A stretch of 24,000 bases of DNA from Paenibacillus sp. (GTDB lineage Bacteria; Bacillota; Bacilli; Paenibacillales; Paenibacillaceae): the NCBI RefSeq assembly GCF_031254035.1, contig NZ_JAIRVF010000123.1; one strand, given 5' to 3'. Positions 523-20,349 of the stretch are shown in pieces. Positions within the stretch are counted from its first letter, which is position 1, and each line of letters begins with the position of its first letter. The position numbers and the translations under genes were made by a program. A model generated the notes under the pieces. The model saw only the letters and a program-made list of their open reading frames with translations. It made no database searches and was not told where the DNA came from.

Positions 523-1380
523 TTGATAGAAAACTATACTTCGATTGAACAAATCGATATAGACACATTGGTCAATATGGTAAAAATGGCGTATGAATTC
601 GAGAACTGGCGAGAAGTCATCTCATTATCTGCCAGCTTGTTGGATTCTGCCGAAACTATCAATAATAACCCATATAAAGGGTTACATGTTGGCCTGGAAA
701 CCAAAAGACATATTTCTTATTATTTTGGTTACAGTTACTTGATGAAGGGTCTTGCTTTTCAGAAATTAAAAATGTTTCCATATGCATTTGAATGCATCGA
801 CTATTACTCGGATTTAAGTTGGCTGGATGATTCAACGGATGAAGCGAATACAGTGATTGAAGATTTCAGAAAATTCGCCAAAGGAAATTTATTGACACTC
901 GAAATCTTGACCGGGAACAAAACCAAGCTGTCGGAGTATGTAGAATTTCTGGAACAAAACCATGATCAAATTCTTTCTGGGCTTATTACCTTGCTTGAAT
1001 CAGCCATTTACCATGGTTATAGTATTGATCGTGAATTGGAGCAGCTGACATATTACGTTCAAGACTCCTATCACGCTGATAAAGTATTGGCAACAAGATA
1101 TCTATCATTCTCATTTATGCTGTCATTATATGATTCTTTAAATAATAATTTGAAAAATGCTATCAACAGATCTTTACATAATTTAGTATTTTCTGATAAA
1201 ATAGGAAACGACAATTATTTTAAAAAATCTGTCATATTATTCGAGACACTTAAGCCCCACGCATCAGCTTCTCAACTTAGAGATTATTCGACTTTAATCA
1301 AAAAAATTTTTGAAGGAGAGATTTCTAATGAAGAAGGCTTTAACTTTAGTCACCGCTTTAGCCATCATCGCATTCAGTAG
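523..1380 (+). CDS. Hypothetical all-helical TPR-like protein without HTH; candidate RNPP/Rap-like peptide receptor
   Basis: A 285-aa ORF with a TTG start 8 nt after a strong RBS (AAAGGAGG). The in-frame upstream region is closed by TGA at 454-456, so there is no hidden N-terminal domain. Residues 64-97 (ISYYFGYSYLMKGLAFQKLKMFPYAFECIDYYSDL) fit a TPR-like helix-pair pattern, and no helix-turn-helix is recognisable at the N-terminus. The 3' end is overlapped by a signal-peptide/repeat-peptide gene, as in rap-phr pairs. The function is an inference. Confidence 0.8.
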   Translation: MIENYTSIEQIDIDTLVNMVKMAYEFENWREVISLSASLLDSAETINNNPYKGLHVGLETKRHISYYFGYSYLMKGLAFQKLKMFPYAFECIDYYSDLSWLDDSTDEANTVIEDFRKFAKGNLLTLEILTGNKTKLSEYVEFLEQNHDQILSGLITLLESAIYHGYSIDRELEQLTYYVQDSYHADKVLATRYLSFSFMLSLYDSLNNNLKNAINRSLHNLVFSDKIGNDNYFKKSVILFETLKPHASASQLRDYSTLIKKIFEGEISNEEGFNFSHRFSHHRIQ

Positions 1381-1639
1381 TGCTGCATTACCGTCCGTTA
1401 CACAAGCAAGCGCGCCGGTCAAACAATTAAATCATGGTGCTGAATATTCTGCTCTTAACCACGGCGCTGAATACTCTGCTCTTAACCACGGGGCCGAATA
1501 CTCTGCTCTTAACCACGGCGCTGAATACTCTGCTCTTAACCACGGCGCTGAATACTCTGCTCTTAACCATGGTGCTGAATACTCGCCACTTAACCACGGG
1601 GCTGAATACTCTGCTCTTAACCATGGTGCTGAATATTAA
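1328..1639 (+). CDS. Secreted precursor with Sec signal peptide plus 8 tandem copies of LNHGAEY(SA); candidate multi-copy signalling pro-peptide
   Basis: ATG at 1328 lies 7 nt after GAAGGAGAG; the ORF-track start at 1310 has no RBS. The signal peptide is MKKALTLVTALAIIAFSSAALPSVTQA|SAPVKQ, with an n-region, hydrophobic core and AXA-like TQA site. It is followed by LNHGAEYSA x5, LNHGAEYSP, LNHGAEYSA, then LNHGAEY-stop. Nucleotide differences between the copies are almost all synonymous in this frame only. Confidence 0.85.
   Translation: MKKALTLVTALAIIAFSSAALPSVTQASAPVKQLNHGAEYSALNHGAEYSALNHGAEYSALNHGAEYSALNHGAEYSALNHGAEYSPLNHGAEYSALNHGAEY
1427..1636 (+). repeat. In-frame 27-nt tandem repeat, 7 full copies plus a terminal 21-nt copy
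   Basis: The unit is ctt aac cac ggc gct gaa tac tct gct, repeated head-to-tail with no unique spacers. The copies differ at third-codon positions. Confidence 0.97.
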
Positions 1640-2049: not shown

Positions 2050-3804
2050 TTATTTGTTAACTTTTGAAGCGACTTTAGCATCGAGGCTATTGATATAACT
2101 TGTTACCAGCTCCTGCACTTCCTCGGCTGTCCCAACACCCAGTGCTTTTGTTGCCAGCTTCTCAGTGCCGGCTAAGTTTAACTTAGCAATAAGGGAACGA
2201 GCGGGCAGGATGGAAGCGGCACTCATGCTGAACTCGTCTAACCCCAATCCAACCAGAATCGGAATGGCGGTTGAATCGCCAGCCATCTCTCCGCACATAC
2301 CAACCCAGCGTCCTTCACGATGTGCTGCATCGATTACCATCTTGACTAAGCGGAGGATCGATGGATGAAACGGCTGGTATAAGTAGGATACTCGTTCATT
2401 CATTCGGTCTGCAGCCATCGTATATTGAATCAGGTCATTCGTGCCAATGCTGAAGAAATCAACTTCCTTTGCAAACCGATCGGCTAACATAGCTGTAGAA
2501 GGAATTTCAACCATGATGCCCAGCTCGATTGAGTCAGAAACAGGGATGTTCTCTGCTTCGAGCTTCGCTTTCTCTTCATGAAAAAGAGCTTTGGCCTGTC
2601 GGAATTCCTCTAGGGTTGCAATCATCGGGAACATGATGCGAAGGTTGCCAAAGACACTTGCCCGCAGCAGGGCGCGAAGCTGAATACGAAAAATTTCCTG
2701 AAGCTCTAAACATAAACGTATAGCGCGAAAACCAAGGAACGGGTTCATCTCTTTCGGTAACTCCAGATATGGCAATTCCTTGTCTCCACCGATATCCAAA
2801 GTTCGAATAACAACAGGTTTGCCCTCCATTTTTTCCAAAACGGTCTTATAGGCAATGAACTGCTCCTTCTCAGAGGGCATTTTGTCTCTCCCCATATATA
2901 GGAACTCAGTGCGGTACAATCCTATGGCCTCACAACCGTTAGCAAGCGCATTCACTGCATCGGAGGAATTACCGATGTTGGCAGCCAGTTCTACATGAGC
3001 ACCGTCCTTTGTGAGTGTAGGCTCGTTCCGCAGCTTAGCCCATTCCGCACGTTTTTTCTCGTACTCCTGCTGCTTTATTTGGTAATCTTTCAGTGTTTCA
3101 CTATCCGGATTTACGATAACAAGTCCTTCCGAACCATCAAGAATAAGCGTATCGCCATCATGAACCTGCGTCAAAATATTTTTTGTTCCCACAACAGCAG
3201 GGATTTCCATTGATCTGGCCATGATCGCAGAATGTGAGGTGCGTCCTCCGATATTGGTCGCGAAACCCAATACATATTCTCGGTTCAATTGCGCTGTATC
3301 CGACGGAGTCAGATCCTCAGCAACCAAGATAACTTTTTCATTTATCTCACTCAAATCTATTACCTTTACCTCTAATAGGTGACTGAGCACCCGCTTTGTT
3401 ACATCCCGCATATCCGCAGCTCGTTCTTTAAGATAAGCACTCTTCATATTTTCGAACATCGCAACTAAGTCAGCAGCAACCTCTTGAAGAGCAAATTCCG
3501 CATTCATTTGTTTATCCCTAATATGTCCCTCTACAGGATCTATAAGCTCAGGGTCGTTTAATATCAGCAGGTGAGATTCGAATATTTCTGCTTTCTCCGC
3601 ACCATACTGCTGGAAGGTTCGTTCCTTAAGGGACTGTATCTCAATTCGAGCTGATTCTAAGGCTCTGCGAAATCTGGAAATTTCAAGAGCGACATCCTTC
3701 ACAATCCGTTTCTCTATGATGAGAGGGACTTGCTCCATAATAAAAGCCTTAGCGATAACAATTCCTGCCGCCGCTGCAATACCTTGGATCTTAATCATGG
3801 ACAA
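2050..3804 (-). CDS. ptsI: Phosphoenolpyruvate-protein phosphotransferase (PTS Enzyme I)
   Basis: 584 aa with an EI-typical N-terminus ([18 protein letters not shown]), a phosphohistidine region ([17 protein letters not shown]) and a C-terminal PEP-utilising domain ([17 protein letters not shown]). The start is TTG at 3804 (GAAGGG 7 nt upstream) or ATG at 3798. It overlaps the ptsH stop. Confidence 0.95.
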
Positions 3805-4066
3805 TTCCCAGCCCTTCTCTCACGAATATCTCCTCGAATGCTGCAATGACTTCCGCTTCGTCTTCCCCCTTCGCTATAAAAGTAATCGTATCCCCTTTTT
3901 CAAGCCCAAGAGAAAGGACACCAAGAAGAGATTTCATAGTCACCTTCCTGCCGCTGGCCTCAGCGAATACTTCAGATTTGTACTTATTCGCAGTATTGAC
4001 AAGAATTGTTGCTGGACGTGCGTGGATTGCGTCCTCGTCCGTAATCTTGAATGTGATGATTTGCAT
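3791..4066 (-). CDS. ptsH: Phosphocarrier protein HPr
   Basis: 91 aa when started at MQIITF (GGAGA 8 nt upstream). The track start at 4075 has its ATG abutting the SD. With this start, His15 (AIHARPA) and Ser46 ([13 protein letters not shown]) fall at the canonical positions. Confidence 0.93.
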
Positions 4067-4108
4067 GAAGTTCATCTCCAGTTCTCTAAACTATTACTTT
4101 GTTTAATG

Positions 4109-6214
4109 TCAATCTTCTTCTACCTCCATAGCGCGATAAAATGCGGTCTCCATTGAACCTCCCTCGGCCAATTCACTTAGAAATGAAGAACTCATCAATT
4201 TATCCAAATCAAATAACAGAGGTACATGCGTCATTTTTTCATCGGTAGATAATAGAATAATTAACTCTACTTCTAAAAAGGGGTCATCTTCTGTGATGAG
4301 CCCCGTTGCTGTATGCAACATACTGATTCCTGGTTTAAATGAGCCATATCGATAATCCGTATGCAATAAAAGAACTTTCGGATAAATAAAAAACCATTTG
4401 GATTCATCGACTATTTGCCGCCGGATCTCTGTCACATAAGAAGCTTGTATATAGTTTTTCCGCAACAGTGGAGCTGCCAGCAAATCAAGCGCTTCATCAA
4501 AAGAAACAATACGACTCAGTTGAAAAATATGTTCCGGGTTCCAGGCAGTCAGCAGGCTAACCTTTTCGATTGACTGAGTTTCCGTTCGACCACTCAAATA
4601 CAGAGCCTCAATTCGTCCGATCAATTCATCCCTAGATATGTCCGGTTCATCAAGTAAGCTCGCAAGCTGCTCTCGTCTGTTTGATGCCATTAACCGTCCT
4701 TTGATAATATGCAAGATCCGATCTTTATCGCCATTTGAAAGAATCGAATTGACATAGATCGTCTCCCCAGATGCATGCACATAGGTGCGATCCGTTGTAA
4801 TGCAATAATTTACGATAGGCTTGAAATCGGATGCATCTTTTACCGTGTACACACCGAGAATGACAGATTTGGGTAGAAGTTGCTTAATATGCGTAAGCAG
4901 CAGTGAATTATAGACATTAGCATAATCGGAAACGATTACAATATTATGAGCAGCTTTCTGAGTTTGTTCCCGCAATACGGATTCTTCAAAATAGAGGGAC
5001 AAACTAGCCGTCTCATCATCTGTCAACCCACTTGGATAATATCTTTTGAATACAGAGCTTGCTGAGACATGTGCCAATGATTTTTTGGTCAGCATATAGA
5101 TTTCCTTGCATTGTGTCACGACATAAACCAATGACTCCGTAGGCATGACCAGATTAAACACATGCCGATAATATAATACCTTCATGTGCGTCTGCACATT
5201 CTCAAAAAGTCGTTCCCGCTGCTTAGAATGCATTCCTGATACCATCTCAAAGTAATCAATTAACATAAAAGTCATGTCGCCGATCTCTTCAAACGACGTG
5301 CTTTTATAATGTGAATCCGTATTTTTCTGCATGCACAGTAGCAGCATGCCATAAAATACAGCCTCTTCGTCAGGTATAGCTAGATTCAAATAAGAGGAGA
5401 ACAATTCGGTTAAATATTGGGCTGCTTTATATTCCAAACGATCTGTAATTAATACCTTTAGATTGTCCGGCCAGTGAATTTCATTTCCCATCAAAACCCG
5501 TACAAGGAAGATTAACGAGGTACGTGCCAAGATCCGAACATCCTGCTCAGCATATTGCTTTTGTAAGACGGTTTCGGTCTTCTTAATACAAAGACTAAAA
5601 TGGTGAAATGATTCACAATGATTTATTGCTCGTATAGCTTCTTGGGACTGAATAAATTCCGTCATGAAAAAATCATAGGCTTGCTCCATGTTCTCGAAGT
5701 CTTGCATGAATTGATAAATTTTACGACGACGTGATAATTCATCCATATCCACGTAGTAACCACGCTTTTTATCCGAGTTCAGCATGTACCCATGTTCCGA
5801 CTGCGCCAATTTCTTTTTAATAAATTGTATATCTTTAATCACGGTGTTGCGGGAAACCATCGTGAGTTCCATCAAATCGGATAGGAACCATTTCCGACTC
5901 TCTACCAACAGCAGCATTAAAATAACTTGGCGACGCTCGTTCGTGGTTAGAATATATTCATCCTGCTCATATTCGTTTGACCACTTCATCATTTGATTCG
6001 CCTGTTTAAGCGTAACAGACATTCCGCCACCCTTAACTCTCGTCAGCGGAGGAAGGTTCGCTTGCTTAAAAAGACAATCCAGACGGTCCATGTAGTAATA
6101 GATCATTCTTCTGGAAAGATCTGTTCCTACAGCCATAGCCGATATGTTTATAATGCTCTTTTTTTCAGCCAGAACTTTAATAAAGAGACAGAAATGATTA
6201 TCGATTTGAATCAT
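4109..6214 (-). CDS. PRD-containing PTS-controlled transcriptional activator (MtlR/LicR/ManR-like: HTH - PRDs - EIIB-like - EIIA(Fru/Mtl)-like)
   Basis: 701 aa with an N-terminal HTH region (ISAMAVGTDLSRRMIYYYMDRL) and a long helical PRD-like middle. The C-terminal PTS_EIIA_2-like segment (YPKVLLLHTDYRYGSFKPGISMLH...ILLSTDE) resembles the adjacent UlaC fold family. There is no AAA+ (sigma-54) module. It sits inside a PTS operon. Confidence 0.8.
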   Translation of the reverse strand: MIQIDNHFCLFIKVLAEKKSIINISAMAVGTDLSRRMIYYYMDRLDCLFKQANLPPLTRVKGGGMSVTLKQANQMMKWSNEYEQDEYILTTNERRQVILMLLLVESRKWFLSDLMELTMVSRNTVIKDIQFIKKKLAQSEHGYMLNSDKKRGYYVDMDELSRRRKIYQFMQDFENMEQAYDFFMTEFIQSQEAIRAINHCESFHHFSLCIKKTETVLQKQYAEQDVRILARTSLIFLVRVLMGNEIHWPDNLKVLITDRLEYKAAQYLTELFSSYLNLAIPDEEAVFYGMLLLCMQKNTDSHYKSTSFEEIGDMTFMLIDYFEMVSGMHSKQRERLFENVQTHMKVLYYRHVFNLVMPTESLVYVVTQCKEIYMLTKKSLAHVSASSVFKRYYPSGLTDDETASLSLYFEESVLREQTQKAAHNIVIVSDYANVYNSLLLTHIKQLLPKSVILGVYTVKDASDFKPIVNYCITTDRTYVHASGETIYVNSILSNGDKDRILHIIKGRLMASNRREQLASLLDEPDISRDELIGRIEALYLSGRTETQSIEKVSLLTAWNPEHIFQLSRIVSFDEALDLLAAPLLRKNYIQASYVTEIRRQIVDESKWFFIYPKVLLLHTDYRYGSFKPGISMLHTATGLITEDDPFLEVELIILLSTDEKMTHVPLLFDLDKLMSSSFLSELAEGGSMETAFYRAMEVEED

Positions 6215-6264: not shown

Positions 6265-6987
6265 TCAGCTTTTTGCCAGTCTATTTTTTTGTCCGTAATA
6301 AGCATTAGAACCGTGTTTTCTGAAATAATGTTTGTCTAGTAAATATTGCGGAATCCGCTGCTGATCATTTGACACTAGCAGTGTATGCAGAGCCATATCC
6401 GCAACTTCATCAAGTACAACACTGTTTTGAACTGCCGCTTTGGCGTCCTTCCCCCAGGTAAATGGCCCGTGTCCACGCACAATCACTCCCGGTACAGCTA
6501 GGGGATCAAGATTCCGTTCACGGAACGTCTCGACAATCACATTACCTGTCTCCGTTTCATAACCCTGCATCACCTCTTCCTCCGTCAATTGACGGGTACA
6601 AGGCACAGGACCGTAAAAAGTATCCGCATGTGTGGTTCCATAGACCGGAATATCCTGTCCTGCTTGCGCCCAGGCCACTGCCCATTTGGAATGTGTGTGC
6701 ACTACAGCACCAATGTCTGCAAAAGCTTTGTACAATACCAAGTGGGTTGCCACATCTGAAGATGGTGACAGCTCGCCTTCCAGCACATTGCCTTCCAAAT
6801 CAATCACAACCATATCATCCAGACTCATATCGGCATATGGAACACCACTTGGCTTAATGACAACAATCTCTCTTTCACGATCAATCATACTGACATTTCC
6901 CCAAGTTAGCTTAACCAGCCCTGATCGGGGTAGGTCTAAATTGGCACGCAGTACCTCAATTTTTAATGGAGTAAAACTTGTTTTCAT
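6265..6987 (-). CDS. ulaF: L-ribulose-5-phosphate 4-epimerase (class II aldolase fold)
   Basis: 240 aa, collinear by eye with E. coli UlaF/SgbE/AraD. Shared motifs: TWGNVS, VVIKPSG, PSSDxATHL, VHTHS, GTTHAD, HGPFxWGKDA, RKHGxNAYYGQK. Confidence 0.92.
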
Positions 6988-7840
6988 AATTGTAGCCTGC
7001 TTCCTTTAGTTTAGGTAATAGAAAAGCAAGAGCTTTAGCGATTTCATCACGATAATCCTCGCTTTTTTCGCTCCACATTTCGATCAAAAACGGGCCGTGA
7101 TAATCTATTGCCTTCAATGTTTTCAATGCGCTTATAAACTCGACACACCCGTCTCCGAACGGGACATCTTTAAATTTACCTGGAAATTCACTTGTCACTT
7201 TCATCGTATCTTTTAGATGCACTGCAGCTATATCATATTTTCCCCGATTTAATTCAGCGGTCACGTTATTATCCCACGCGGACAGGTTGCCGAGATCCGG
7301 ATACACATAGAGCCACGGTGAACCCACTTCAGCAGCGATGGACAGGTAGCTGGTAATCGAATTCATAAATGGATCGTCCATTATTTCAATGGCTAGAATA
7401 ACTTGTTTAGCCTGAGCCCATGTGCATGCCAATTTTAAGTTGTCAATAAAATACTGCCGTGTCATTTCATCTTTTGACTCATAATAGACATCATATCCAG
7501 CCAGTTGGATCACACGAATTCCTAAGTCATCAGCCAGTTCAATCGCCTTATGAATAAGAGAGAGACCTTTCTCCCGAATAGCGGAGTCGTGGGAACCAAG
7601 TGGATAGCGCCGATTTCCACTCAGACACATCGTAGGCACCCGGACACCTGTTTGGAGACTGGCGAGAACGAATTCTCGCCGCTCCTCCTGGGTCCAGTCT
7701 AGGCGACTCAATCGCTCATCGGTTTCATCGACGGACATCTCCACAAAATCAAATCCTAGCTCTTGCGCAATAAGCAACCGCTCAAGCCAAGAAATACCAC
7801 TCGGCAATGCCTTTTCATAAATACCGATCGGATTCATCAT
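6956..7840 (-). CDS. ulaE: L-xylulose/L-ribulose-5-phosphate 3-epimerase
   Basis: Collinear with E. coli UlaE: [48 protein letters not shown], [12 protein letters not shown], LIEMWSE. The preferred start is ATG 7840, which overlaps the ulaD TGA (TGATGATG). The track TTG at 7852 is less likely. Confidence 0.92.
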
Positions 7841-8484
7841 CAGTTCCCCCAAATTCTCGCAATCTCCGCCTTAAATTCACGAGCCGCCTGCGCTGGATCA
7901 GCTGCCTCACGAATACCGCGACCAGCGATGAAGGTGTACACATCAATACCTTTGAACAATGCCAATGTATCGACTTCCAATCCACCAGTAACAGACACCT
8001 TAAATCCCATTTCTACCAATTTCCGAATTTTGTTTAAATCTTTTTCGCCCCATGTCTCACCCGCTAGCAGCGCATCGCGGCTTTGATGATAGATAACTTG
8101 GGACAACCCGGCCTCTTTCCAGGCAAGCGCGTGTTCAAATGTCCAGTCCCCATATAATTCTACCTGCAAATCCCTTACTTCTTTCATTGCTGCCTTCATC
8201 GTCGGGATGGTGGCTGAACAGATCACCGTCATCCAGTCCGCACCTGCATCCGCACAATTTCTAGCTACCGTACCTCCTGCGTCCGCACATTTCGTATCCG
8301 CTAAAATTATTTTTTCGGGATACAACGCGCGCAAACAACGTACTGCCTCCATTCCTTCTGCTAAACATAATATCGTACCTGCTTCAATGATATCGACTTC
8401 ATGGCCAACGGCCAGAACTGAGCTCAAGGCTTCACTTAATATCGAGTTGTCTAGTGCAATTTGTAAATTGGGCAAACCCATCAT
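7840..8484 (-). CDS. ulaD: 3-keto-L-gulonate-6-phosphate decarboxylase
   Basis: 214 aa, collinear with E. coli UlaD/SgbH: LQxALDN, VDIIExGTILC, LADxKxADAG, ADWxTVIC, FKVxVTGGL, FIAGRxIRxAxxP. Confidence 0.92.
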   Translation of the reverse strand: MMGLPNLQIALDNSILSEALSSVLAVGHEVDIIEAGTILCLAEGMEAVRCLRALYPEKIILADTKCADAGGTVARNCADAGADWMTVICSATIPTMKAAMKEVRDLQVELYGDWTFEHALAWKEAGLSQVIYHQSRDALLAGETWGEKDLNKIRKLVEMGFKVSVTGGLEVDTLALFKGIDVYTFIAGRGIREAADPAQAAREFKAEIARIWGN

Positions 8485-8495
8485 AATCCTCTCCT

Positions 8496-8966
8496 CTACT
8501 TTAAATAAGAACTTGTATCCACCTGATCGATCATTTGCAAAATATCATCGATTGAAGTAGCTGCCACCATCTGATCCAGTACATTCGGACCATCAAAAAG
8601 GGCTACGATCTGCGGAATTGCGATGCTCGAATGAATAGACGGAGACGTAGCCGCCAGTGCTATCAGCACTTGTACTTCCTTGCCGTCAGAAAACTCCACA
8701 GGTTTGTCTAAAATAACGAGACTAAAAGCGTCGCGATTCACCCCATCCTTCGGGCGCGCATGGGGCATGGCCATCCCTGGAGTCAAAATATAATAAGGTC
8801 CATGAAGTTCAGTTGAGGCAATAATCGCTTGCGTATATCTGGGCTCTACTGCACCGCTTTTGACTAACGGCTCCGTTGCTCTTTCAATTGCTTCCTGCCA
8901 TGTCTTTGCCGTCGCATTCAATAGGATAGAATCATTTTCAACTAAGGACTGCTTCAGATTTAACAT
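8496..8966 (-). CDS. ulaC: PTS ascorbate-family EIIA component
   Basis: 156 aa, collinear with E. coli UlaC: TWQEA, VEPRY, HGPYxxLxPGxAMPHxRP with the phosphorylatable His. Confidence 0.9.
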   Translation of the reverse strand: MLNLKQSLVENDSILLNATAKTWQEAIERATEPLVKSGAVEPRYTQAIIASTELHGPYYILTPGMAMPHARPKDGVNRDAFSLVILDKPVEFSDGKEVQVLIALAATSPSIHSSIAIPQIVALFDGPNVLDQMVAATSIDDILQMIDQVDTSSYLK

Positions 8967-9297: not shown

Positions 9298-10725
9298 TTA
9301 TTCTAAACCTTCCTCATACGCTTTCTTATCTTTTGCTCGAGCAAACTGGATAAGTGGGATTGCGAGCATAAAGAGCACGACAATAACAATGCCCCAAATA
9401 TGGCAATACTTAAGCAACATCGCTACAGGTGTCCAGAAGATTTCAAAGTCAATGTTTCCGTGCCAGCCTCCGAATTTATATAGACCGACAAGCATCACTG
9501 CAAAAGCACTGATCGACACTTGCAAGATCCCTGAGACGAAGGAGCATATCATCGCCGCTCTTGTTCCCCCACGTTTGTTTGCAAACACAGCAATGGTCGC
9601 ATTATCGAAGAAGACAGGAACGAATCCGGTAATAATCAGCACGGGTGCCTTGAACAAGACCATACCTAGAATGACGATAAACTGACCCAATGCTCCAAAA
9701 ATAAAACCAAACAAAATTGCATTGGGTGGTGCAAAACTATATACAGCTGCGCAATCTACAGCAGGAAGCGCTCCCGGCAAAATGCGATTGGAAATCCCTT
9801 GGAATGAGTTCGTCAGTTCTGCGACAAACATTCGCACACCTTGCATCAGGATGGCGAGGTACACCGAAAAGTAAAGAGCTTCTGACAAAATATATGTGCC
9901 GAAAGATAATGTCTCTGGGAACTTTGCCGGATTCATTGCGCGAAGGTAGTCATCGCCCAAAATCACCATAATGGACCCGAAGAATAGGAGCATCAGCGTA
10001 CTTGTCGCCACAATGTTATCGTGGAATATTGACAACCACTTGGGCAATCGGATATTTTCCAAGTTCTTTTTAGGGTCTCCCAACTTCCCTGCGAATTTAT
10101 CCGTTAACCAGACCGCAAACATTTGCTGATGTCCGATCGCAAAACCAGCATTACCTGTCAATCGCTGAGTGGGACCTACCGTCAAATTAGAAGAAACCAT
10201 CCAGTAAAGACCTACCAATACACCTACAATAGCAGCACCAATCATATTCTGATATTCAGGGAACAGAAAGAAAATAATCCACGTAACCGTTGTTGCTTGC
10301 TGCACCATAATGTGTCCGGTAATGAACAAAGTTCTTATTTTCGTAAATTTCCGCAGTAAGACTAACACAATATTCAGTATGAATCCGATAAGCAATGAAA
10401 TCATTGTCCAGGAAGTCGTTAGACCAACAGAATCCAAAGCTGCGTTTACAGCGTTTAATCCAAAATAGGGGTCAATAATCGCCGCCTCTAACTTGAAGCG
10501 ATCATTAAGGCCTGCCAAAATAGGACGGAAAGTGGTGACTAGACCAGCAGCCCCAACATTCAGGATCATATAGCCGACAACTGCCTTGACAAATCCAGCA
10601 AAGCATTCATAAAAAGGTTTTTTGAGCAAGATATAACCTAGAAGAACAATAAGTCCAACAAAAAATTCCGGTCTCGTCAAAATATTGTTCGCAAACCAAC
10701 TAAACAAATTGAGTAAAGTATCCAT
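9298..10725 (-). CDS. ulaA: PTS ascorbate-family EIIC permease
   Basis: 475 aa and polytopic, collinear with E. coli UlaA: GHIMxQQ, GHQQ, FHDNIV, QGVRMFVAEL, IDCAAxYSFAP, FANxxGG. The RBS is AAGAGGTGA. Confidence 0.93.
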   Translation of the reverse strand: MDTLLNLFSWFANNILTRPEFFVGLIVLLGYILLKKPFYECFAGFVKAVVGYMILNVGAAGLVTTFRPILAGLNDRFKLEAAIIDPYFGLNAVNAALDSVGLTTSWTMISLLIGFILNIVLVLLRKFTKIRTLFITGHIMVQQATTVTWIIFFLFPEYQNMIGAAIVGVLVGLYWMVSSNLTVGPTQRLTGNAGFAIGHQQMFAVWLTDKFAGKLGDPKKNLENIRLPKWLSIFHDNIVATSTLMLLFFGSIMVILGDDYLRAMNPAKFPETLSFGTYILSEALYFSVYLAILMQGVRMFVAELTNSFQGISNRILPGALPAVDCAAVYSFAPPNAILFGFIFGALGQFIVILGMVLFKAPVLIITGFVPVFFDNATIAVFANKRGGTRAAMICSFVSGILQVSISAFAVMLVGLYKFGGWHGNIDFEIFWTPVAMLLKYCHIWGIVIVVLFMLAIPLIQFARAKDKKAYEEGLE

Positions 10726-10839: not shown

Positions 10840-11904
10840 TTATAAGAATGACTTAAAGGGCATATCTGGTTCAATGGTGAAAACATCGTTAAAGCCTCTT
10901 GGATAATGATATTCGAGTTTGTCTTTATCATTTGGATAAACAAACTTCCCGCCTACTTGCCACGTATATGGTTTGAACTGATAGTTCAAGCGGTCTTTTT
11001 TCGATTCCCAAAGCAATTGCAATTCTTTCGGGTCTGCTTGGAAATTGGACCAAATATCATAATGGACGGGAATGACTACGTTAGCTTTCAGTGCCTCAGC
11101 CATCCGCAGCATATCAACAGAAGTGATTTTATCTGTGATGCCACGAGGATTCTCACCATATGCACCCAGACAAACATCAATCTGATGCTCGTTTCCATGT
11201 TTTGCGAAGTAATTGGAGTAATGTGAATCCCCTGCGTGATACAAACTACCACCTGAAGTTTTGAACAAGTAATTGACGGCTACTTCATCCATCTCCATCG
11301 GCATCTTACCTTTTAAAGTCACGTTCTGTGGTACAGTCACCAAGGCTGTACGATCAAACGCTTCCAAGACAACGATTTCAACATCCTTTATTTTGATGAC
11401 ATCTCCTGGTTTTACTACGATGCAGCGTTCTTCGGGCACGCCCCAGCTCGTCCAGAGATCAACGCAAGCTTGCGGGCCAATAAAGGGAACAGTTGACGCA
11501 CAATTTTGCAAAACGGCCGCAGCAGTATTGATATCAATATGATCCGAGTGAAAATGAGTAACGATCAGAGCATCCAGATTCTTGATCGCAAAAGGATCGA
11601 TGACAAAAGGGGCTGTCCGTAAATTGGGTTGCAACTCCTTACAGCCACTCATCCGTTGCATTTGATGACCGTCTTTCATCCATTTATTTTTACGCGTTTG
11701 CTTTCCCGTTCCACACCAGAGATCAACCAGCAGGTTGGCATCTCCTTCGGATTTAAGATAAATTCCCGTACAACCCAACCACCACATCGCAAACGTATTT
11801 TTCTCAACAACCGTTTCGTCTATTTCCTCATTCAACCACGTGCCCCATTCTGGAAATGTACTTAAAATCCACTTTTCTCGTGTAATATCATTGATATTTG
11901 CCAT
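10840..11904 (-). CDS. ulaG: L-ascorbate-6-phosphate lactonase (metallo-beta-lactamase fold)
   Basis: 354 aa from [21 protein letters not shown] (GAGGGA 8 nt upstream). It is collinear along its whole length with E. coli UlaG: WWLGCTG, FWCGTGK, HxHxDHID, YLFKTxGGSLYHxGDSHYSN, [11 protein letters not shown], [24 protein letters not shown]. The 65 extra N-terminal codons of the track ORF are not supported. Confidence 0.93.
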
Positions 11905-11937
11905 TTTAAATTTCCCTCGTTTCGGTAAATGGTTTTT

Positions 11938-11959
11938 AAAAAGAAAACGTTTTCTTTTT
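11938..11959 (-). promoter_or_regulatory. 22-bp perfect palindrome with a cre-like core (candidate CcpA site or operator)
   Basis: AAAAAGAAAAC|GTTTTCTTTTT. The central 15-mer AAGAAAACGTTTTCT matches the cre consensus WTGNAANCGNWNNCW at all but one position (A for T at position 2). It lies between the TATAAT box and the ulaG RBS. Confidence 0.5.
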
Positions 11960-11967
11960 ATGATTAA

Positions 11968-11973
11968 ATTATA
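11968..11973 (-). promoter_or_regulatory. Candidate -10 box of the ula operon promoter
   Basis: The minus strand reads cctggtTATAATtt, 64 nt upstream of the ulaG ATG. No good -35 is present (ttttca/tttttc), which fits an activator-dependent promoter. Confidence 0.4.
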
Positions 11974-12212
11974 ACCAGGTCGTTGACTGTGAAAAAGTCT
12001 AACCTGCACACAAGCGAGCTGTACATGGGTGCACTGAAAAACTTGCCAGAAAAAACGCCTCGTTGCTTTAAGGGAAATATAGATTTGTTCTATTATCATA
12101 GAATCAATAAAGAATTAATTCTATATCATTCTTCTGTTTCTCCTAAGTAAATATCGGTAAATATTCATCTTATTGGGGTATACTTTCGCAGAACAGAAAT
12201 CACCTTGAAAAC

Positions 12213-12436: not shown

Positions 12437-12964
12437 ATGATGCAGCTCTCAAGAGAAGATTGGATTAAAGCCGGGTTACGCAAACTAGCGCATTCCGGAA
12501 TCGATGCCGTTCGCGTTGAAGTGCTTGCGCGGGAACTGAAAATAAGCAAAGGAAGCTTTTATCATCATTTTCAGGATCGAAGCGATCTTCTGGAATCGAT
12601 GATCGATTATTGGGAGGAGTACGCAACTCGGAATATCATTGATGAATTAGAAGTGCAGAGCTCCCCCTCACTAGAACGCATATTGAAAGTTAGCTTTGCC
12701 CCAAATGAAGAAAACAAACAAATTGAATTCGCCATTTACGCATGGGCCAAACGATCTCCCGAGCTTTCGATCCGCATTGCCGAGATTGAAAATCAAAGGA
12801 TAAGTTATGTCGCGAAATTATATGAGCAACGAGGTTTGAAGCCTTCGGCTGCACTCTCTCGGGCAAAGCTGGCCTACCTGGTTTATTTAGGATGGATGAC
12901 CCGATTTGAAGCCAAGGCTGATTTTGATATGGAGAGTACATTAAATATTTTGCTTAATGCATGA
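12437..12964 (+). CDS. TetR/AcrR-family transcriptional regulator
   Basis: 175 aa with an N-terminal TetR HTH (WIKAGLRKLAHSGIDAVRVEVLARELKISKGSFYHHFQDRSDLL). The second ATG (12440) has better SD spacing. Confidence 0.9.
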   Translation: MMQLSREDWIKAGLRKLAHSGIDAVRVEVLARELKISKGSFYHHFQDRSDLLESMIDYWEEYATRNIIDELEVQSSPSLERILKVSFAPNEENKQIEFAIYAWAKRSPELSIRIAEIENQRISYVAKLYEQRGLKPSAALSRAKLAYLVYLGWMTRFEAKADFDMESTLNILLNA

Positions 12965-12977
12965 TCTGCTACTTTGC

Positions 12978-13009
12978 ATCCCTAATATGGCATAGGTCAT
13001 ATTAGGGAT
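12978..13009 (+). other. Perfect 12-bp stem hairpin after the TetR gene (weak or atypical terminator)
   Basis: ATCCCTAATATG, 8-nt loop, CATATTAGGGAT. It is followed by AAAAATT rather than a T-run, so termination efficiency is doubtful. Confidence 0.45.
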
Positions 13010-13021
13010 AAAAATTAATAT

Positions 13022-13043
13022 AAACATACGCTTCCGTATGTTT
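13022..13043 (+). promoter_or_regulatory. Inverted-repeat operator, copy 2 (upstream of the DUF3995 gene)
   Basis: AAACATACG-CTTC-CGTATGTTT, with perfect 9-bp arms. The core is the same as at 12408-12427. It ends 4 nt before the GAGGAGGA RBS of the 13061 gene. Confidence 0.6.
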
Positions 13044-13060
13044 CGAGGAGGAAGACCCTT

Positions 13061-13483
13061 ATGGAATTCTGGATGACTTTCGTTTCAGTCTGCATTTTAT
13101 GCTTCATCAGCATGCTGCATATGTACTGGGCGTGTGGAGGGCGCTGGGGAACCGAAGCTGTTATCCCCCGCAAAAAAGGAGAAAGCCAGCCTACATTCGT
13201 TCCAGGCAAGTCGGGAACTTTGCTGGTGGCATTCCTTCTTCTTATGGCTTGCTTTCTCCTTGTTATTCAAGTCGGGTTCCTGCCTTCTATGAAAGCAAGT
13301 GCGATCTCCCGCTGGGGCTGCATCGTTTGCACAGCTGTTTTTTTGCTGCGAAGTATCGGCGATTTCAAGTACGTCGGCTTTTTCAAAAAAGTAAAACATT
13401 CCACTTTTGCAACCTATGATACATTCTTGTACAGCCCACTCTGCTTGTATCTTGGAATCAACTATATTCTATTATTGTTATAA
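13061..13483 (+). CDS. DUF3995-family small membrane protein
   Basis: 140 aa with four hydrophobic segments. The N-terminal signature SMLHMYWACGGRWG and the later RSIGDFKYVGFFKK are typical of DUF3995. The RBS is strong. Confidence 0.8.
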   Translation: MEFWMTFVSVCILCFISMLHMYWACGGRWGTEAVIPRKKGESQPTFVPGKSGTLLVAFLLLMACFLLVIQVGFLPSMKASAISRWGCIVCTAVFLLRSIGDFKYVGFFKKVKHSTFATYDTFLYSPLCLYLGINYILLLL

Positions 13484-13519
13484 GTAAAGTTTTGACAGCA
13501 TCGGTCAATATTAAAAACC

Positions 13520-13575
13520 AAAGAACCTCTGGATAACCCAAGATATCCTTGGGGAAGCAGAGGTTCTTTTCGTTT
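13520..13575 (+). terminator. Rho-independent terminator of the DUF3995 gene
   Basis: AAAGAACCTCTG (13520-13531) pairs with CAGAGGTTCTTT (13558-13569). There is an inner CCAAG-atatc-CTTGG hairpin, followed by T-CG-TTT. Confidence 0.75.
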
Positions 13576-14050
13576 ATAAAAAATCATCACTTCAATTCTG
13601 AACCGACCATGCGCAAACTGCCGAGCTTCATCCATATCGAGAGGTGCCGATGGCCGATCTTTGCTATACAGATAACCATCCAAGTCAATAGCGGCTTTGA
13701 AATCCGCATCTTCATACAGAACATTAACCGCGGTGGCTCCGCCTTGGGAATGGCCGATAATCCCGAGCTTCGAAAAATCGATTTTGCTGGCAACGGGACT
13801 GTCTGAGCCCTCTGAGCCTATTTTCTTCATTTGTGCCAACGCGAATCGGATGTCTTGCGTCTGTTCATCGATAATAGGGGTGGTAACCTCATTTTCCGCT
13901 TGATAACCCATTTCCGAAAGAGAGGTAGCGCCCTCATAACCTTCATACGAACTATCCGGATAGGCTGACATCAACGCCGTGCCCGGATGCTCCACCGCTA
14001 CACTAAAGTATTATGTAAAATTTTTTGGCACTACTAACGATAAATTGCAT
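13576..14050 (-). pseudogene. Alpha/beta-hydrolase (lipase / PAF-acetylhydrolase-like) remnant
   Basis: The ORF contains VAVEHPG and the nucleophile elbow GIIGHSQGGATAV. It lacks the roughly 100 aa normally preceding VAVEH. An RBS-preceded ATG at 14050 gives only MQFIVSSAKKFYIIL-stop in another frame, with an A/T homopolymer run at 14017-14026. The ORF's 3' end runs through the neighbour's terminator and gene, and that part of the sequence does not look protein-like. Confidence 0.55.
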
Positions 14051-14252
14051 TCAATCCTCCCGCATACCATATTAAACAATCTCCATCCCTCCTTCTTTAC
14101 TTAAGTTCTCCGGGATAGTCAGTTCCTGCACTCTCTCTGTGGCTTCGATAGATATCTCTCAATCAATATTCGTAGTCCAATTATATGGTTAACCATACTT
14201 AATTATTAAGATATATACTCCCTTTTGCCAATGAAAGGGTAAACACACAGAA

Positions 14253-14288
14253 ACAACCCGACCGGAGCTCGAACTCCAATCGGGTTGT
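14253..14288 (-). terminator. Terminator-like hairpin downstream of the ribosomal-protection gene
   Basis: ACAACCCGA (14253-14261) pairs with TCGGGTTGT (14280-14288). On the minus strand it is followed by ttctgtgtgttt, an interrupted U-tract. Confidence 0.55.
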
Positions 14289-14320
14289 TGTCAATGTCAC
14301 AATCCATTATTCTGCATAGC

Positions 14321-16303
14321 TTAAAATGCACGCATCACATGCATCAAATATTCGTTTCGCTGCAGCGGATTATAATCGGTCCGCGGTCTAGTCGGAACAT
14401 CACTATGGACCTGGATGAATCCAGCCGGCTCCGTCATCATAAAACCTTCGCCTTGAGTAAAGGCGTGCAGGCTTCTTTTGAAGCTTTCTGTCATGCTGAC
14501 GGGAATGGTGCCCGAAATATGAGCCATGCCGTGTTCCACATCCGTTTCGCTTATTATCGCCTGGATGGCGGATAATTTGAAAACCGCTTTGCTCATTGCC
14601 TCTTTAGGTACCGTCAGTACATAGCTGTAAATCGGTTCATACACTTCCGTACCCGCCTGCACCAGCGCTTCCATGAACACAAGCGGAACAAGCTTCCGAA
14701 AATCGCCTGCGGTTGTCACTGGGCTCGCATATCCGGTGTGGGTCAATGTGACAATGATATCGGTGACTTCCCATCCAAACAAACCTTGCAAAAGCGTTAA
14801 GTGGACCGTTTCTTCAATCGCTTTATGAAAAGCCAAAGGTAGTGAACCCAGCTCGACTTCGAGCCGGTATGTGATTCCGCTTCCTGGCCCGCCGGGTTCG
14901 ATTCGAAAACCTACGGTCGCATAAAATGGATTATCGCCCTCCATGATGACTTCCAGCGCCTGCCCTACTCCCGCCGGTTTCTCCACGCAGACGGTTCGGG
15001 TCTCTGCAAACCGGACAGCCACGGAATAGGTTTCTTTCAAAGCAGATTCAATCACTTCTTTTTGCACTTCGCCGAAAATGCGGATATACAGATCCTGATG
15101 GATTTCATTTTTAACCACCTGAATTAGAGGATCTTCCTCCGACATACTAACAAGAGCCTGGTACAGGTGATGGGTTTGGCTTGGGTCCGCTGCTTCGATT
15201 TTCGTCTCCATCCGGGGCACAGCGAAGCTGAACCGCTTGATCTGATTAGATGATTCGCCGACGATATCCCCGATCCGAACATCTTCCAGCCCCCATACTT
15301 TAGCCAAATCACCGGCACCAATCTTGGCAGCGGGAACGGATTTTCCGTTCATCAAAGCATGGAGCTTTTTGATTTTGCAATCATAGATTTCGTATTCACC
15401 CTGCTTGTTGTTCCGCCCGACCTTCACTTGCTCTCGCAAGGAGAGACTGCCTGAAAACAGCCTGATATAAGCTATTTTTTCCCCGCTTGCTTCTCTTTCG
15501 AGTTTAAACACAATCCCCGACAAAAACGTTTCATCCGGCTGAGTTTCATTCACCGGAAACCATCGGGTTATGCCTGCAAGCAAGTCCGCAACACCTACCC
15601 CGGTCACGGCCGATCCAAAATATACCGGATGCGCATTCACTTGCCGCACCTGATCCCTAAATGCTGCTTCGACCCGTTCTCCCGGCAGCATCTCGCCATG
15701 GATATAAGACTCGAGCAACGACTCGTCATAGGATGACAAAAGTTCGATGCATTGCTCCAAAAACGCGGAGTCCGTGTCCCAATCGAAACGTTTAAGAGAA
15801 ACAGACGCTTCTTTCAGGCCCGCATTGGTGATTTTACATAAAGAAACCACGGACGGTGCAAGCTTAGCGCGGATTTGTTCGACCGACTGCTCACTCCGAG
15901 CGCCAAGCCGATCTATTTTGTTCACGAATAAAATTGTGGGAATCCCCATTTTCCGCAGAACGGAAAACAGTATTTTCGTCTGCGCCTGCACGCCTTCCAC
16001 CGCCGAAATGACCAAAATAACGCCATCCAATACGCTAAGGGAGCGCTCCACTTCAGCGATAAAATCAGCATGGCCCGGTGTGTCGATCAAATTCACCTTG
16101 TAATCGCCCAGATTAAAAGAAACCACGGACGCCTTGATCGTGATCCCTCTTTTCCGTTCCAGATCCATGGCATCCATCTGCGTGTTCCCTTGATCCACTC
16201 TTCCGAGCTCGTCAATCACATTCGTATCGAATAAAATGCGTTCAGCCAAACTTGTCTTTCCGGCGTCTACATGCGCCAAGATCCCTATATTTATAATTTT
16301 CAT
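14321..16303 (-). CDS. Tet(M)/Tet(O)/TetB(P)-family ribosomal protection protein (EF-G-like GTPase)
   Basis: 660 aa. The N-terminus MKIINIGILAHVDAGKTSLAERILF is nearly identical in pattern to Tet(M) and lacks the N-terminal extension of EF-G. It has G motifs AHVDAGKT, DTPGH and NKID, and is collinear in many blocks: SLSVLDGVILVISAVEGVQAQT, KMGIPTILFVNKID, AYIRLFSG, GLFGWEVTD. Confidence 0.85.
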   Translation of the reverse strand: MKIINIGILAHVDAGKTSLAERILFDTNVIDELGRVDQGNTQMDAMDLERKRGITIKASVVSFNLGDYKVNLIDTPGHADFIAEVERSLSVLDGVILVISAVEGVQAQTKILFSVLRKMGIPTILFVNKIDRLGARSEQSVEQIRAKLAPSVVSLCKITNAGLKEASVSLKRFDWDTDSAFLEQCIELLSSYDESLLESYIHGEMLPGERVEAAFRDQVRQVNAHPVYFGSAVTGVGVADLLAGITRWFPVNETQPDETFLSGIVFKLEREASGEKIAYIRLFSGSLSLREQVKVGRNNKQGEYEIYDCKIKKLHALMNGKSVPAAKIGAGDLAKVWGLEDVRIGDIVGESSNQIKRFSFAVPRMETKIEAADPSQTHHLYQALVSMSEEDPLIQVVKNEIHQDLYIRIFGEVQKEVIESALKETYSVAVRFAETRTVCVEKPAGVGQALEVIMEGDNPFYATVGFRIEPGGPGSGITYRLEVELGSLPLAFHKAIEETVHLTLLQGLFGWEVTDIIVTLTHTGYASPVTTAGDFRKLVPLVFMEALVQAGTEVYEPIYSYVLTVPKEAMSKAVFKLSAIQAIISETDVEHGMAHISGTIPVSMTESFKRSLHAFTQGEGFMMTEPAGFIQVHSDVPTRPRTDYNPLQRNEYLMHVMRAF

Positions 16304-16367
16304 GGATTATAATCCTCATCTCTCTATTCATATCTTTCTCCTTTCGAATGTTGTTAAATTGCCGCAT
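16242..16367 (-). CDS. Candidate leader/upstream ORF overlapping the start of the ribosomal-protection gene (speculative)
   Basis: GGAG 8 nt before ATG 16367 gives MRQFNNIRKEKDMNREMRIIIHENYKYRDLGACRRRKDKFG-stop (41 aa). An internal ATG at 16331 has an even stronger SD (AAAGGAG, 6 nt). The ORF covers the main gene's weaker SD and ATG (16303) in another frame. Confidence 0.3.
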   Translation of the reverse strand: MRQFNNIRKEKDMNREMRIIIHENYKYRDLGACRRRKDKFG

Positions 16368-16398
16368 GCCAATCACTCCAATCTAATGTATTACCCCC

Positions 16399-16427
16399 AG
16401 TATATGGGGATTGATGTTTTGTTTCAA
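16399..16427 (-). promoter_or_regulatory. Sigma-A-type promoter of the ribosomal-protection gene
   Basis: The minus strand reads TTGAAA (16427-16422), 17-nt spacer, TATACT (16404-16399). This is about 95 nt upstream of the ATG. Confidence 0.55.
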
Positions 16428-16465
16428 CAAATAGCGCTATAAGCTCGGACAAGGACTGCTTATAG

Positions 16466-16516
16466 CACAAAAAAACCTTCAATTCCATCTCAAAGATGGT
16501 TTTGAAGGTTTTATAT
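16466..16516 (-). terminator. Strong (bidirectional-looking) terminator after the DJ-1/PfpI gene
   Basis: AAAACCTTCAA (16472-16482) pairs with TTGAAGGTTTT (16502-16512), with an inner CCATCT-caa-AGATGG. It is flanked by an A-run (+ side) and a T-run, so a U-tract follows on either strand. Confidence 0.85.
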
Positions 16517-16535
16517 GATTGAAGGTATTAACTGT

Positions 16536-17150
16536 TCACTTTCCGGTATAATCCAAGTCAATGTCGTATTCCATCATCCGTGCCGTTTCCTTCGCTACCT
16601 CTTTACCGAGCAGGCGGACGACCATATGAAAAGCCATGTGGATACCTGCCGAAATTCCCGCTGATGACACAATCCGGTCTTCATCGACGAATTTAACGCC
16701 TTCCTCGACCTTAACCGCAGGGTATGTATCCCGCATCCTCTCGATACTGGCCCAATGGGTCGTCGCGTGTTTACCATCAAGTAGTCCTGCTTCCGCCAGC
16801 AAGAACGCTCCGGTACAAACCGATGTCATCCACTGTACCTCATGGAAACGATTGCCGATCCAGTCGATAACCGTTTTATTTTTCACTAGACTCCTTGTGC
16901 CCATGCCGCCCGGAATAACCAGCAAATCAAAAGCAGGTGCTGACTCGAAGTTATAATCCGGCATCACTTTCAAACCGTTGCAGGCTGTAACCATTCGGCC
17001 ATCCCCTGAAATGGTGGTTACTTCAAATGGACTGTATGTTTCCCCTTGTTCCTGCTTCGCAGTTGTCACTGCAAATACTTCAAACGGGCCGGCAAAATCG
17101 AGCACCTCTACATCGTCAAATAGTAGGATACCCACTTTCCATTTGTTCAT
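16536..17150 (-). CDS. DJ-1/PfpI-family protein (type-1 glutamine-amidotransferase-like fold)
   Basis: 204 aa from MNKWKVGILLFDD (AGGAGGAG 7 nt upstream). It has the nucleophile elbow SVCTGAFLLAEAGLL, followed by H in ATTHW. Confidence 0.85.
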   Translation of the reverse strand: MNKWKVGILLFDDVEVLDFAGPFEVFAVTTAKQEQGETYSPFEVTTISGDGRMVTACNGLKVMPDYNFESAPAFDLLVIPGGMGTRSLVKNKTVIDWIGNRFHEVQWMTSVCTGAFLLAEAGLLDGKHATTHWASIERMRDTYPAVKVEEGVKFVDEDRIVSSAGISAGIHMAFHMVVRLLGKEVAKETARMMEYDIDLDYTGK

Positions 17151-17329
17151 CTTTACTCCTCCTATCCCCATTTCGGGCATTTGGCAATCTCAGAGTACTT
17201 ATTGCAGCACATATCTTGTCTTAATCATAATAACAGAGCAGCAAGGAATTTAAATGACCAAGAAGTGCTACAAAATGACCAAATCATAAAAACGTCATAT
17301 TGATGTGCTTTCGGGAATTAGACATGATA

Positions 17330-17358
17330 TTGACCATTTTACATGATTCTGCCATAAT
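17330..17358 (+). promoter_or_regulatory. Sigma-A-type promoter of the MarR gene
   Basis: TTGACC (17330-17335), 17-nt spacer, CATAAT (17353-17358). Confidence 0.6.
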
Positions 17359-17359
17359 A

Positions 17360-17379
17360 TTAGACAATACCATGTCTAA
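17360..17379 (+). promoter_or_regulatory. Inverted-repeat operator immediately after the -10 box (candidate MarR autoregulatory site)
   Basis: TTAGACA-atacca-TGTCTAA, with perfect 7-bp arms. A third TTAGACA half-site lies at 17318-17324, abutting the -35. Confidence 0.55.
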
Positions 17380-17398
17380 ATACAAAGGAGAACATAAC

Positions 17399-18935: not shown

Positions 18936-18940
18936 AAATT

Positions 18941-19525: not shown

Positions 19526-19529
19526 GACT

Positions 19530-20279: not shown

Positions 20280-20315
20280 TTGGATTCCTCCCAGCAATGA
20301 ATGGTTTATAATTCC

Positions 20316-20344
20316 ATTTTATTAATGAATGAACGTTTGGTCAA
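20316..20344 (-). promoter_or_regulatory. Sigma-A-type promoter of the hydrolase-TetR operon
   Basis: The minus strand reads TTGACC (20344-20339), 17-nt spacer, TAAAAT (20321-20316). AATGAATG direct repeats at about 20296-20303 and 20323-20330 flank it. Confidence 0.6.
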
Positions 20345-20349
20345 TATAA

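Follow-up and report, generated by a model that had tools for sequence, protein, structure and literature searches.

A probable Alo-type cassette of Paenibacillus with an eight-copy precursor of the predicted signal peptide NHGAEY

The Alo (Autoinducer peptide Locus) systems of Paenibacillus polymyxa were defined by Voichek et al. 2020 (Life Sci Alliance, PMC7425212), with a scheme in which the receptor combines a helix-turn-helix (HTH) domain with tetratricopeptide repeats (TPR). A synthetic peptide corresponding to the C-terminal six amino acids (aa) of AloP13, SHGRGG, triggers transcriptional reprogramming, and by mass spectrometry secreted AloP13 fragments stop right before SHGRGG and AloP15 fragments right before NHGVFSFTA (PMC7425212). 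Table S1 of the same work lists Alo7, with a receptor of 285 aa and the peptide MKKLISRPLSLSLFSLLVFVTSHDLITVFYHGANH, ending in ...VFYHGANH, and Alo17, with a receptor of 293 aa and peptides such as ...APNNHGANSFQPNNHGANS(FQPNNHGANS) and ...APNNHGANSFQPNNHGANSFQPNNHGANS, in which NNHGANS is present in two to three tandem copies; no discussion of the AloP17 tandem repeats was found in the main text of PMC7425212. Here, we describe a locus located within a 24,000-nucleotide (nt) stretch of Paenibacillus sp. DNA (contig NZ_JAIRVF010000123.1, hereafter the window), in which an aloR-like receptor gene is overlapped by a gene for a small, secreted-looking protein ending in eight tandem copies of NHGAEY. 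This locus is quite probably a two-gene, RRNPP-like quorum-sensing cassette of the Alo type on a Paenibacillus chromosome, belonging to the short, HTH-less AloR7/AloR17 clade, with an eight-copy signal polyprotein.

The second group of systems relevant for comparison is Rap-Phr. Even-Tov et al. 2016 (PMC5199041) provided the first catalogue of intragenic Phr core duplications, and up to eight identical Phr copies per propeptide have been reported (PMC11343458, PMC5199041). Duplicated Phr propeptides of Bacillus phages yield several active pheromones via the proteases WprA, Bpr and NprE, and identical Phr copies have been proposed to raise the pheromone:receptor ratio (Felipe-Ruiz et al. 2024, PMC11343458).

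The aloP-like pre-pro-peptide gene of the window (1328-1639, + strand) starts with ATG, is preceded by the ribosome-binding site GAAGGAGAG at 1312-1320, and has its first 53 nt in common with the 3' end of the receptor gene. Its 103-aa product reads MKKALTLVTALAIIAFSSAALPSVTQASAPVKQ(LNHGAEYSA)x5 LNHGAEYSP LNHGAEYSA LNHGAEY*. As read from the sequence, the part encoded by 1328-1426 resembles a signal peptide followed by a short pro-region: it begins with MKKALTLVTALAIIAF... and has the Sec-like features of an MKK start, the 13-residue hydrophobic core ALTLVTALAIIAF, the small-residue motifs SSA and ASA and a terminal PVKQ, and 32 of its 33 residues are identical in P. azoreducens. The tandem array itself (1427-1639) consists of eight 27-nt units, each coding for L-NHGAEY-S-A/P, the final one comprising 21 nt up to the Y codon followed by TAA. 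Tandem Repeats Finder places a 27-nt period at 1439-1635, with 7.3 copies and 90% matches. A preliminary description of this DNA, made from the letters of the window, had listed the array coordinates, the unit boundaries and individual codons, all of which are correct.

Comparison of the units codon by codon in all six frames revealed variation in ten of the 27 columns, eight of them at codon position 3 (binomial P = 0.003); the remaining two are a silent first-position Leu change (TTA/CTN) and a G to C change that converts Ala to Pro in copy 6. This amounts to nine silent changes and a single replacement, which falls in the spacer, exactly as the preliminary description had it. Summed over the unit pairs of the window, the proportion of synonymous differences (pS) is 0.50 and that of non-synonymous differences (pN) 0.024, a ratio of 0.05, so that the six-frame count which had been proposed as a check strongly favours the frame originally chosen. 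The further argument that the silent changes by themselves identify this frame, since the others change residues, holds in part. Frames +2, +3, -1 and -3 do have five to eight of nine residues altered between units, but the antisense frame -2 (1427-1636) reads a nearly invariant YSAPWLRAE with two variable columns, and the sense frame is only slightly more conserved. Hence the silent pattern, which the sense frame fits, leaves two candidate frames and not one. Conservation of frame -2 is explained as a geometric artefact of the wobble positions that it shares with the sense frame, and this frame is considered non-coding, because it has no listed open reading frame (ORF) and the repeat unit provides it with no start codon. 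Arguments of the type "silent changes identify the frame" are thus weakened by a wobble-aligned antisense frame, unless start and stop codons are checked as well.

What the array conserves becomes clearer when the 14-copy array of P. azoreducens is included. Within the window there are six DNA haplotypes of the core, requiring at least six substitutions, all silent (P ~ 4e-5 under a uniform neutral expectation). Over the 22 units of both species, NHGAEY is invariant across 11 haplotypes of the 18-nt core, which require at least 11 substitutions, all silent and all at third positions (P ~ 9e-9 under the same expectation), whereas replacements are confined to a three-residue spacer that reads SAL ten times, SPL nine times and LTF once. 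Inspection of related loci for variation in the core, suggested earlier as a way to challenge its conservation, accordingly found no change of NHGAEY in the 22 units of the two species. Besides LTF, which belongs to P. azoreducens, further spacers are SAF in P. donghaensis and DTA and SIQ in three-copy arrays, and the residue before N across relatives can be L, F, A, Q, Y, D or N, among others. As the residue preceding N varies and the replacements sit in spacers, the array is best described as a hexapeptide core with a three-residue spacer. Of the unit "(L)NHGAEY plus S-A linker" in the preliminary description, NHGAEY is retained as the core, while the linker is better written S-[A/P]-L, with L more probably part of the spacer than of the core. 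On these sequence grounds the mature signal is likely the hexapeptide NHGAEY, or less probably the 7-mer LNHGAEY; by analogy, its register would be the same as that of SHGRGG in AloP13.

When one genome per species and metagenomes were scanned, 31 related loci emerged (24 from genomes and seven from metagenomes), and exact look-ups added three more. An ORF of about 40 aa with an MKK-hydrophobic start overlaps the 3' end of the receptor gene in 22 of the 24 genome loci, in six of the seven metagenome loci and in two further contigs. The peptide ORFs of these relatives end in [N/D]HG[A/S/T/Q/V][E/D/N/G][Y/F], followed by zero to six residues. Among 37 distinct units, H and G never change, and they are preceded by N in 31, D in five and Y in one; the position ahead of the core holds L, F or Y in 28 units, and the core closes with Y or F in 31. 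The nearest single-copy relatives end in ...IQLFNHGSEY*, ...IQAFNHGSEY*, ...IKMFNHGAEY* and ...ITPLNHGAEY*, and single-copy relatives terminate exactly at ...NHGAEY*, ...NHGSEY* or ...NHGANY*. The proposal that the mature signal is the extreme C-terminus suits these single-copy relatives but not several others, in which one to six residues follow the motif.

Tandem arrays are found in three or more lineages of the receptor. To the first belong the window, with eight copies, P. azoreducens, with 14, and P. donghaensis, with three or more, the last being the only, and partial, relative retrieved by a protein search with the propeptide. The second, with TTL-NHGANY-DTA-NHGANY-SIQ-NHGANY, is represented by P. 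rhizosphaerae, P. favisporus, XY044 and a metagenome (L009, L010, L014 and L031), and the third by AloP17 of P. polymyxa. A single C-terminal NHGAEY is encoded at three more loci, L025 and L026 (peptide ORF at 1928 and 1838, respectively) and L033 (about 2300-2430), whose receptors are 51-57% identical to that of the window. Identical NHGAEY beside receptors this divergent makes cross-talk between species possible. Orphan-looking receptor homologues are found in P. pini and Neobacillus mesonae (L011 and L018), where no recognisable peptide ORF lies downstream, and these resemble the published orphan AloR18. In P. dendrobii, a second short AloR paralogue of 303 aa (L003, 5186-6097) is situated directly downstream of the first receptor-peptide pair.

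The receptor gene (523-1380, + strand) has a TTG start codon preceded by AAGGAGG at 508-514, its ORF admits no upstream extension, and its 285-aa product lacks an HTH. An initial homology search returned 15 clusters of proteins of about 285 aa, nearly all from Paenibacillus; the identical cluster is Paenibacillus sp., and the relatives are from Paenibacillus together with three loci in one Neobacillus mesonae assembly. Compared with AloR7 of P. polymyxa (sequence from Supplemental Data 1, PMC7425212), the receptor gives a BLASTP E value of 2e-45 and 33% identity over 264 aa. The likeness to Alo peptides perceived in the preliminary description thus reflects real homology of the system, and AloP7 and AloP17 share the pattern xHGxxx. 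A full profile search extended the family to 295 relatives, many of them of about 460 aa, in which the receptor-like domain forms the C-terminal 270 residues, preceded by an XRE/SinR-type HTH (residues 1-70) and some 120 helical residues. Such HTH-bearing forms were reached at E values of 1e-50 and weaker and are found in P. peoriae, Brevibacillus laterosporus and Saccharibacillus. The AlphaFold2 (AF2) model of the receptor, which is confident, with a predicted local distance difference test score (pLDDT) of 85.7, is all-alpha with 12 paired helices, and its best Foldseek matches in the PDB are the peptide-binding TPR domains of LGN and KLC1 (template modelling (TM) score ~0.5, E >= 4e-3). The modelled fold is that of a TPR-like solenoid.

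The resemblance of this locus to Alo7 and Alo17 extends to most of its features. The receptor is homologous and of matching length (285 aa here versus 285 and 293 aa), aloP overlaps the 3' end of aloR, and the precursor combines an MKK-hydrophobic signal sequence with a C-terminal xHGxxx. AloP17 itself is repeated two to three times with a spacer of three to four residues (FQP), and the cassettes are confined to Paenibacillaceae, where they occupy variable genomic positions. Among the traits that mark Alo systems, AloR homology, an overlapping short ORF with a hydrophobic N-terminus and occurrence in Paenibacillaceae are all present, as is the adjacency typical of RRNPP systems, that is a propeptide gene with a signal-like N-terminus adjoining the receptor gene; the N-terminal HTH of the published receptor scheme is absent. 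Since the receptors published for Alo7 and Alo17 are just as short, the HTH is not regarded as a defining feature of membership. Differences are the eight copies (14 in P. azoreducens) as opposed to one to three, precursors of 103 and 157 aa that exceed the 30-50-aa window used for aloP in PMC7425212, and a receptor lacking the HTH that accompanies the TPR in the published scheme. Also, Alo13, the sole Alo system tested with a synthetic peptide, is not of the short class. NHGAEY was not found in the supplementary text of PMC7425212, and the supplementary tables of RRNPP_detector are without these peptides.

If the locus operates as an Alo-type cassette, the precursor would be exported via Sec with removal of its signal peptide, and extracellular proteases would then excise each unit by cutting after the hydrophobic or aromatic residue preceding N (L or F) and after the terminal Y, which would release up to eight NHGAEY hexapeptides per precursor besides S-A/P-L tripeptides. 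Residues L, F or Y at P1 are typical of subtilisin-like enzymes, and because hydrophobic or aromatic residues mostly stand both ahead of the core and at its end, a single protease specificity could make both cuts. The hexapeptide would be re-imported, presumably by an oligopeptide permease (the window contains no opp genes), and would bind the concave face of the cytoplasmic TPR-like receptor. With the core multiplied, each transcript would yield more signal in proportion to the receptor encoded on it, 8:1 here and 14:1 in P. azoreducens; unequal recombination would shift the copy number, and selection would preserve every core. We infer secretion, the precise positions of the cuts, import, receptor binding and the effect of dosage. 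For removal of the signal peptide, the sequence would place the cleavage at SSA or ASA. Proline at position +1 disfavours signal peptidase I, and hence SSA|A is an equally likely site as ASA|P.

An explanation that shares the signalling function holds that only the C-terminal copy is released, by a single cut, and that the internal copies are functionless by-products of slippage or unequal crossing-over. Most Phr peptides are indeed released by a single cut, and a single copy suffices in most relatives of this locus. Copies 2, 4 and 5 of the window are identical in DNA, so that units might have been duplicated recently, copy numbers differ between close relatives (eight versus 14), and the interior units are on average 2.4 and 3.2 nt apart within the two arrays but 6.6 nt apart between them, which is typical of concerted evolution. 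Nevertheless, functionless copies would be expected to gather replacements, and the internal cores have many silent changes and no replacement at all over the 11 haplotypes, even as the spacers do change. Besides, pS within the array (0.50) exceeds pS between the receptors of the window and P. azoreducens (0.24, with a dN/dS ratio (omega) of 0.11), which suggests that the unit types predate the split of the species and that units are old and maintained. The last units of the two arrays are 1 nt apart, and the sole SP-type unit of the window, copy 6, is 2-3 nt from several P. azoreducens units. The arrays in two other receptor lineages (NHGANY in three copies in L009, L010, L014 and L031, and AloP17 with two to three) and the processed, active internal Phr copies of Bacillus phages (PMC11343458) likewise speak against release of the last copy alone, which we consider improbable.

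Most simply read, the sequences describe an ancient array of two or more unit types; unequal recombination amplified different ones in each lineage, every core being kept by selection. The earlier contrast, purifying selection rather than recent slippage, was right about the preserved core but drawn too sharply, as identical units and copy numbers of eight versus 14 indicate that unit turnover is ongoing. As judged from the sequences, purifying selection and repeat turnover act together.

Still less probable is a secreted repetitive peptide without a signalling role, which could be either a metal binder using His, Glu and Tyr, where a free X-X-H N-terminus such as L-N-H would form an amino-terminal Cu- and Ni-binding (ATCUN) motif, or a precursor with several cores that matures into a modified natural product, the adjacent TPR protein serving as chaperone or immunity factor or being unrelated. 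Invariant H and G with an acidic and an aromatic residue in each unit would suit such a product, the receptor has no DNA-binding domain, and multi-core precursors do exist among ribosomally synthesized and post-translationally modified peptides (RiPPs). Yet, no modifying enzyme, transporter or other gene is conserved beside the pair in the 24 genome loci, the N-terminus looks like a Sec-type signal and not a RiPP leader, and the partner protein is clearly homologous to AloR receptors, whose AloR13/AloP13 system reacts when a synthetic hexapeptide of the xHGxxx type is added. With no maturation enzyme conserved beside the pair, both the RiPP and the metal-binding variant were taken to be unlikely. 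Finally, a non-coding satellite, or the open 138-aa reverse-strand ORF at 1427-1843 as the real gene, is of negligible probability in spite of the conserved antisense frame -2, as the frame of that ORF (-1) differs at five of nine residues between units, frame -2 is merely wobble-aligned and without a start codon, and the sense ORF has a ribosome-binding site, ATG, signal peptide and terminator and is kept in about 30 loci.

The assignment to an Alo-type signalling cassette nonetheless has to be weighed against several observations. Pfam and NCBIfam scans of both cassette proteins gave nothing meaningful, with no TPR, HTH or other domain match in the receptor, and its relatives match TPR hidden Markov models (HMMs) only below threshold. 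The top 50 Foldseek matches are generic TPR proteins (LGN, KLC, 14-3-3), with no RRNPP receptor among them. Likewise, PDB sequence-profile searches with short and long receptor alignments retrieved no Rap, NprR, PlcR, PrgX or AimR, the sole matches being SinR/XRE HTH domains with the long forms, while the repeat domain matched nothing; thus neither sequence nor fold provided detectable homology to a founding RRNPP(A) member (Rap, Rgg, NprR, PlcR, PrgX or AimR). A Pro occupies position +1 of the obvious ASA|P site, and the real cut may be at SSA|A. Copy numbers from short-read draft assemblies may also be unreliable, because two records, Logan contig L034 (ending at 1388, with an identical receptor) and the P. 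donghaensis GenBank record P0178, both stop inside the array. With no HTH in the receptor, DNA binding under the control of the peptide, which is the usual output of Alo and RRNPP systems, cannot hold here in the form depicted. No neighbour gene besides the receptor is conserved across the 24 genome loci, and no family is common to more than three closely related loci, and hence the surroundings give no clue to a target gene.

The output of the receptor is the weakest part of the model. Given that it has no DNA-binding domain, action by protein-protein contact is favoured as most likely, either in a Rap-like manner or by pairing with HTH-bearing AloR paralogues. TrlR, a truncated TraR of Agrobacterium, offers an analogue for a partner or decoy role of an HTH-less AloR. 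A broader proposal, which we put forward tentatively and regard as doubtful at present, is that HTH-less AloRs constitute a distinct class of receptors that do not bind DNA, being Rap-like switches or partners or decoys of HTH-bearing AloRs, that their precursors were repeatedly expanded with copy number dialling the threshold, and that NHGAEY is active across species. In this class, precursors are expanded in at least three lineages, up to 14 copies and above the reported Phr maximum of eight.

As regards expression signals, a sigma-70-type promoter-like site (TTGACC-18-TATAAT, 11 of 12 consensus matches) lies upstream of the receptor gene at 453-482 and is conserved in P. azoreducens (L001). 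A candidate internal promoter at 1173-1202 (TTTACA-18-TAAAAT with an upstream TG, ten of 12 matches), located inside the receptor gene and upstream of the peptide gene, could drive the latter separately, as in some known phr genes, although this amounts to a consensus match and hence a weak indication. An intrinsic-terminator-like hairpin of 16 pairs with a T-run at 1646-1690 ends the operon, inside the block conserved with L001. All three sites are on the + strand.

The block of homology with P. azoreducens (204-1686, + strand; L001 3676-5326) encompasses the whole two-gene cassette, and blastn aligns nothing else, the flanks being unrelated. Immediately upstream of position 204, where this homology begins, lies the 3' end of a transposase-like ORF (1-85, + strand; ...YNNQRIHSTIGYNTPSDFELSYWNQAA*), which resembles the C-terminus of an IS3-family integrase and is too short for an HMM match. 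The differing flanks and this adjacent transposase remnant are the two observations that suggest mobility of the cassette; no relative was found when viral contigs and plasmids were searched for it. Its behaviour matches that of the cassettes which the literature on Alo and Rap-Phr describes as "variable". Downstream, on the - strand, the window carries ptsI (2050-3804), ptsH (3791-4075), a gene for a PRD/HTH_11/EIIA regulator (4109-6214) and an L-ascorbate (ula-type) phosphotransferase system operon with UlaF-like (6265-6987), UlaE-like (6956-7852), UlaD-like (7840-8484), EIIA (8496-8966), EIIC (9298-10725) and lactonase (10840-12099) genes. A run of small regulators and hydrolases is situated at 12437-21025 (two TetR, MarR, alpha/beta hydrolases, isochorismatase and DJ-1/PfpI). 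A 660-aa EF-G-like GTPase (14321-16303, - strand) scores 749.5 bits with the NCBIfam tetracycline ribosomal-protection model, near its cut-off of 775, and is hence a near-threshold candidate for a Tet/Otr(A)-type protein. A GH95 glycoside hydrolase gene is found at 21233-23626 (- strand), and neither this gene nor the run of regulators and hydrolases has an evident link to the cassette.

Set beside Rap-Phr, the locus shares a receptor lacking a DNA-binding domain, a propeptide gene that overlaps or follows the receptor gene, and identical or near-identical cores repeated in one propeptide with a Sec-type signal; in Phr the internal copies are freed by extracellular proteases and active, with a higher pheromone:receptor ratio as the proposed benefit. 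However, the receptor has no Pfam or PDB profile match to Rap, is about 90 aa shorter than Rap (~375 aa) with no evidence of the N-terminal three-helix bundle, and is paired with a hexapeptide core with invariant H-G in place of the Phr-type pentapeptide. By analogy, the locus would work like a multi-copy Phr without being a member of Rap-Phr. A more distant parallel is the yeast alpha-factor gene MFalpha1, whose secreted precursor strings together several identical mature peptides, the short spacers between them being cleared by proteolysis, so that copy number sets the output per translation event; organism and machinery (Kex2/Ste13 in the secretory pathway, versus extracellular bacterial proteases) are unrelated, and the comparison is one of analogy only.

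Peptide quorum sensing in Paenibacillus, tandem pheromone propeptides and even tandem AloP copies in the published tables of the short clade are already known. Modestly new are the NHGAEY signal itself, copy numbers of eight and 14 compared with a Phr maximum of eight, and explicit evidence, at the level of sequence comparison, for selection on every internal core. Detection pipelines could miss such cassettes, because the receptor has no TPR HMM match and the 103-aa and 157-aa precursors exceed the peptide length limits applied (30-50 aa in Voichek 2020 and 10-100 aa in RRNPP_detector). For an uncharacterised branch of the Alo family, the locus predicts NHGAEY as the mature signal, and HTH-less AloR receptors must signal in a manner so far undescribed. 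The natural alleles with one, three, eight and 14 copies bear on the relation between copy number and signalling threshold, a question raised for Rap-Phr; if the proposed model is true, copy number would be a fast-evolving dial of the signal:receptor ratio and hence of the quorum threshold.

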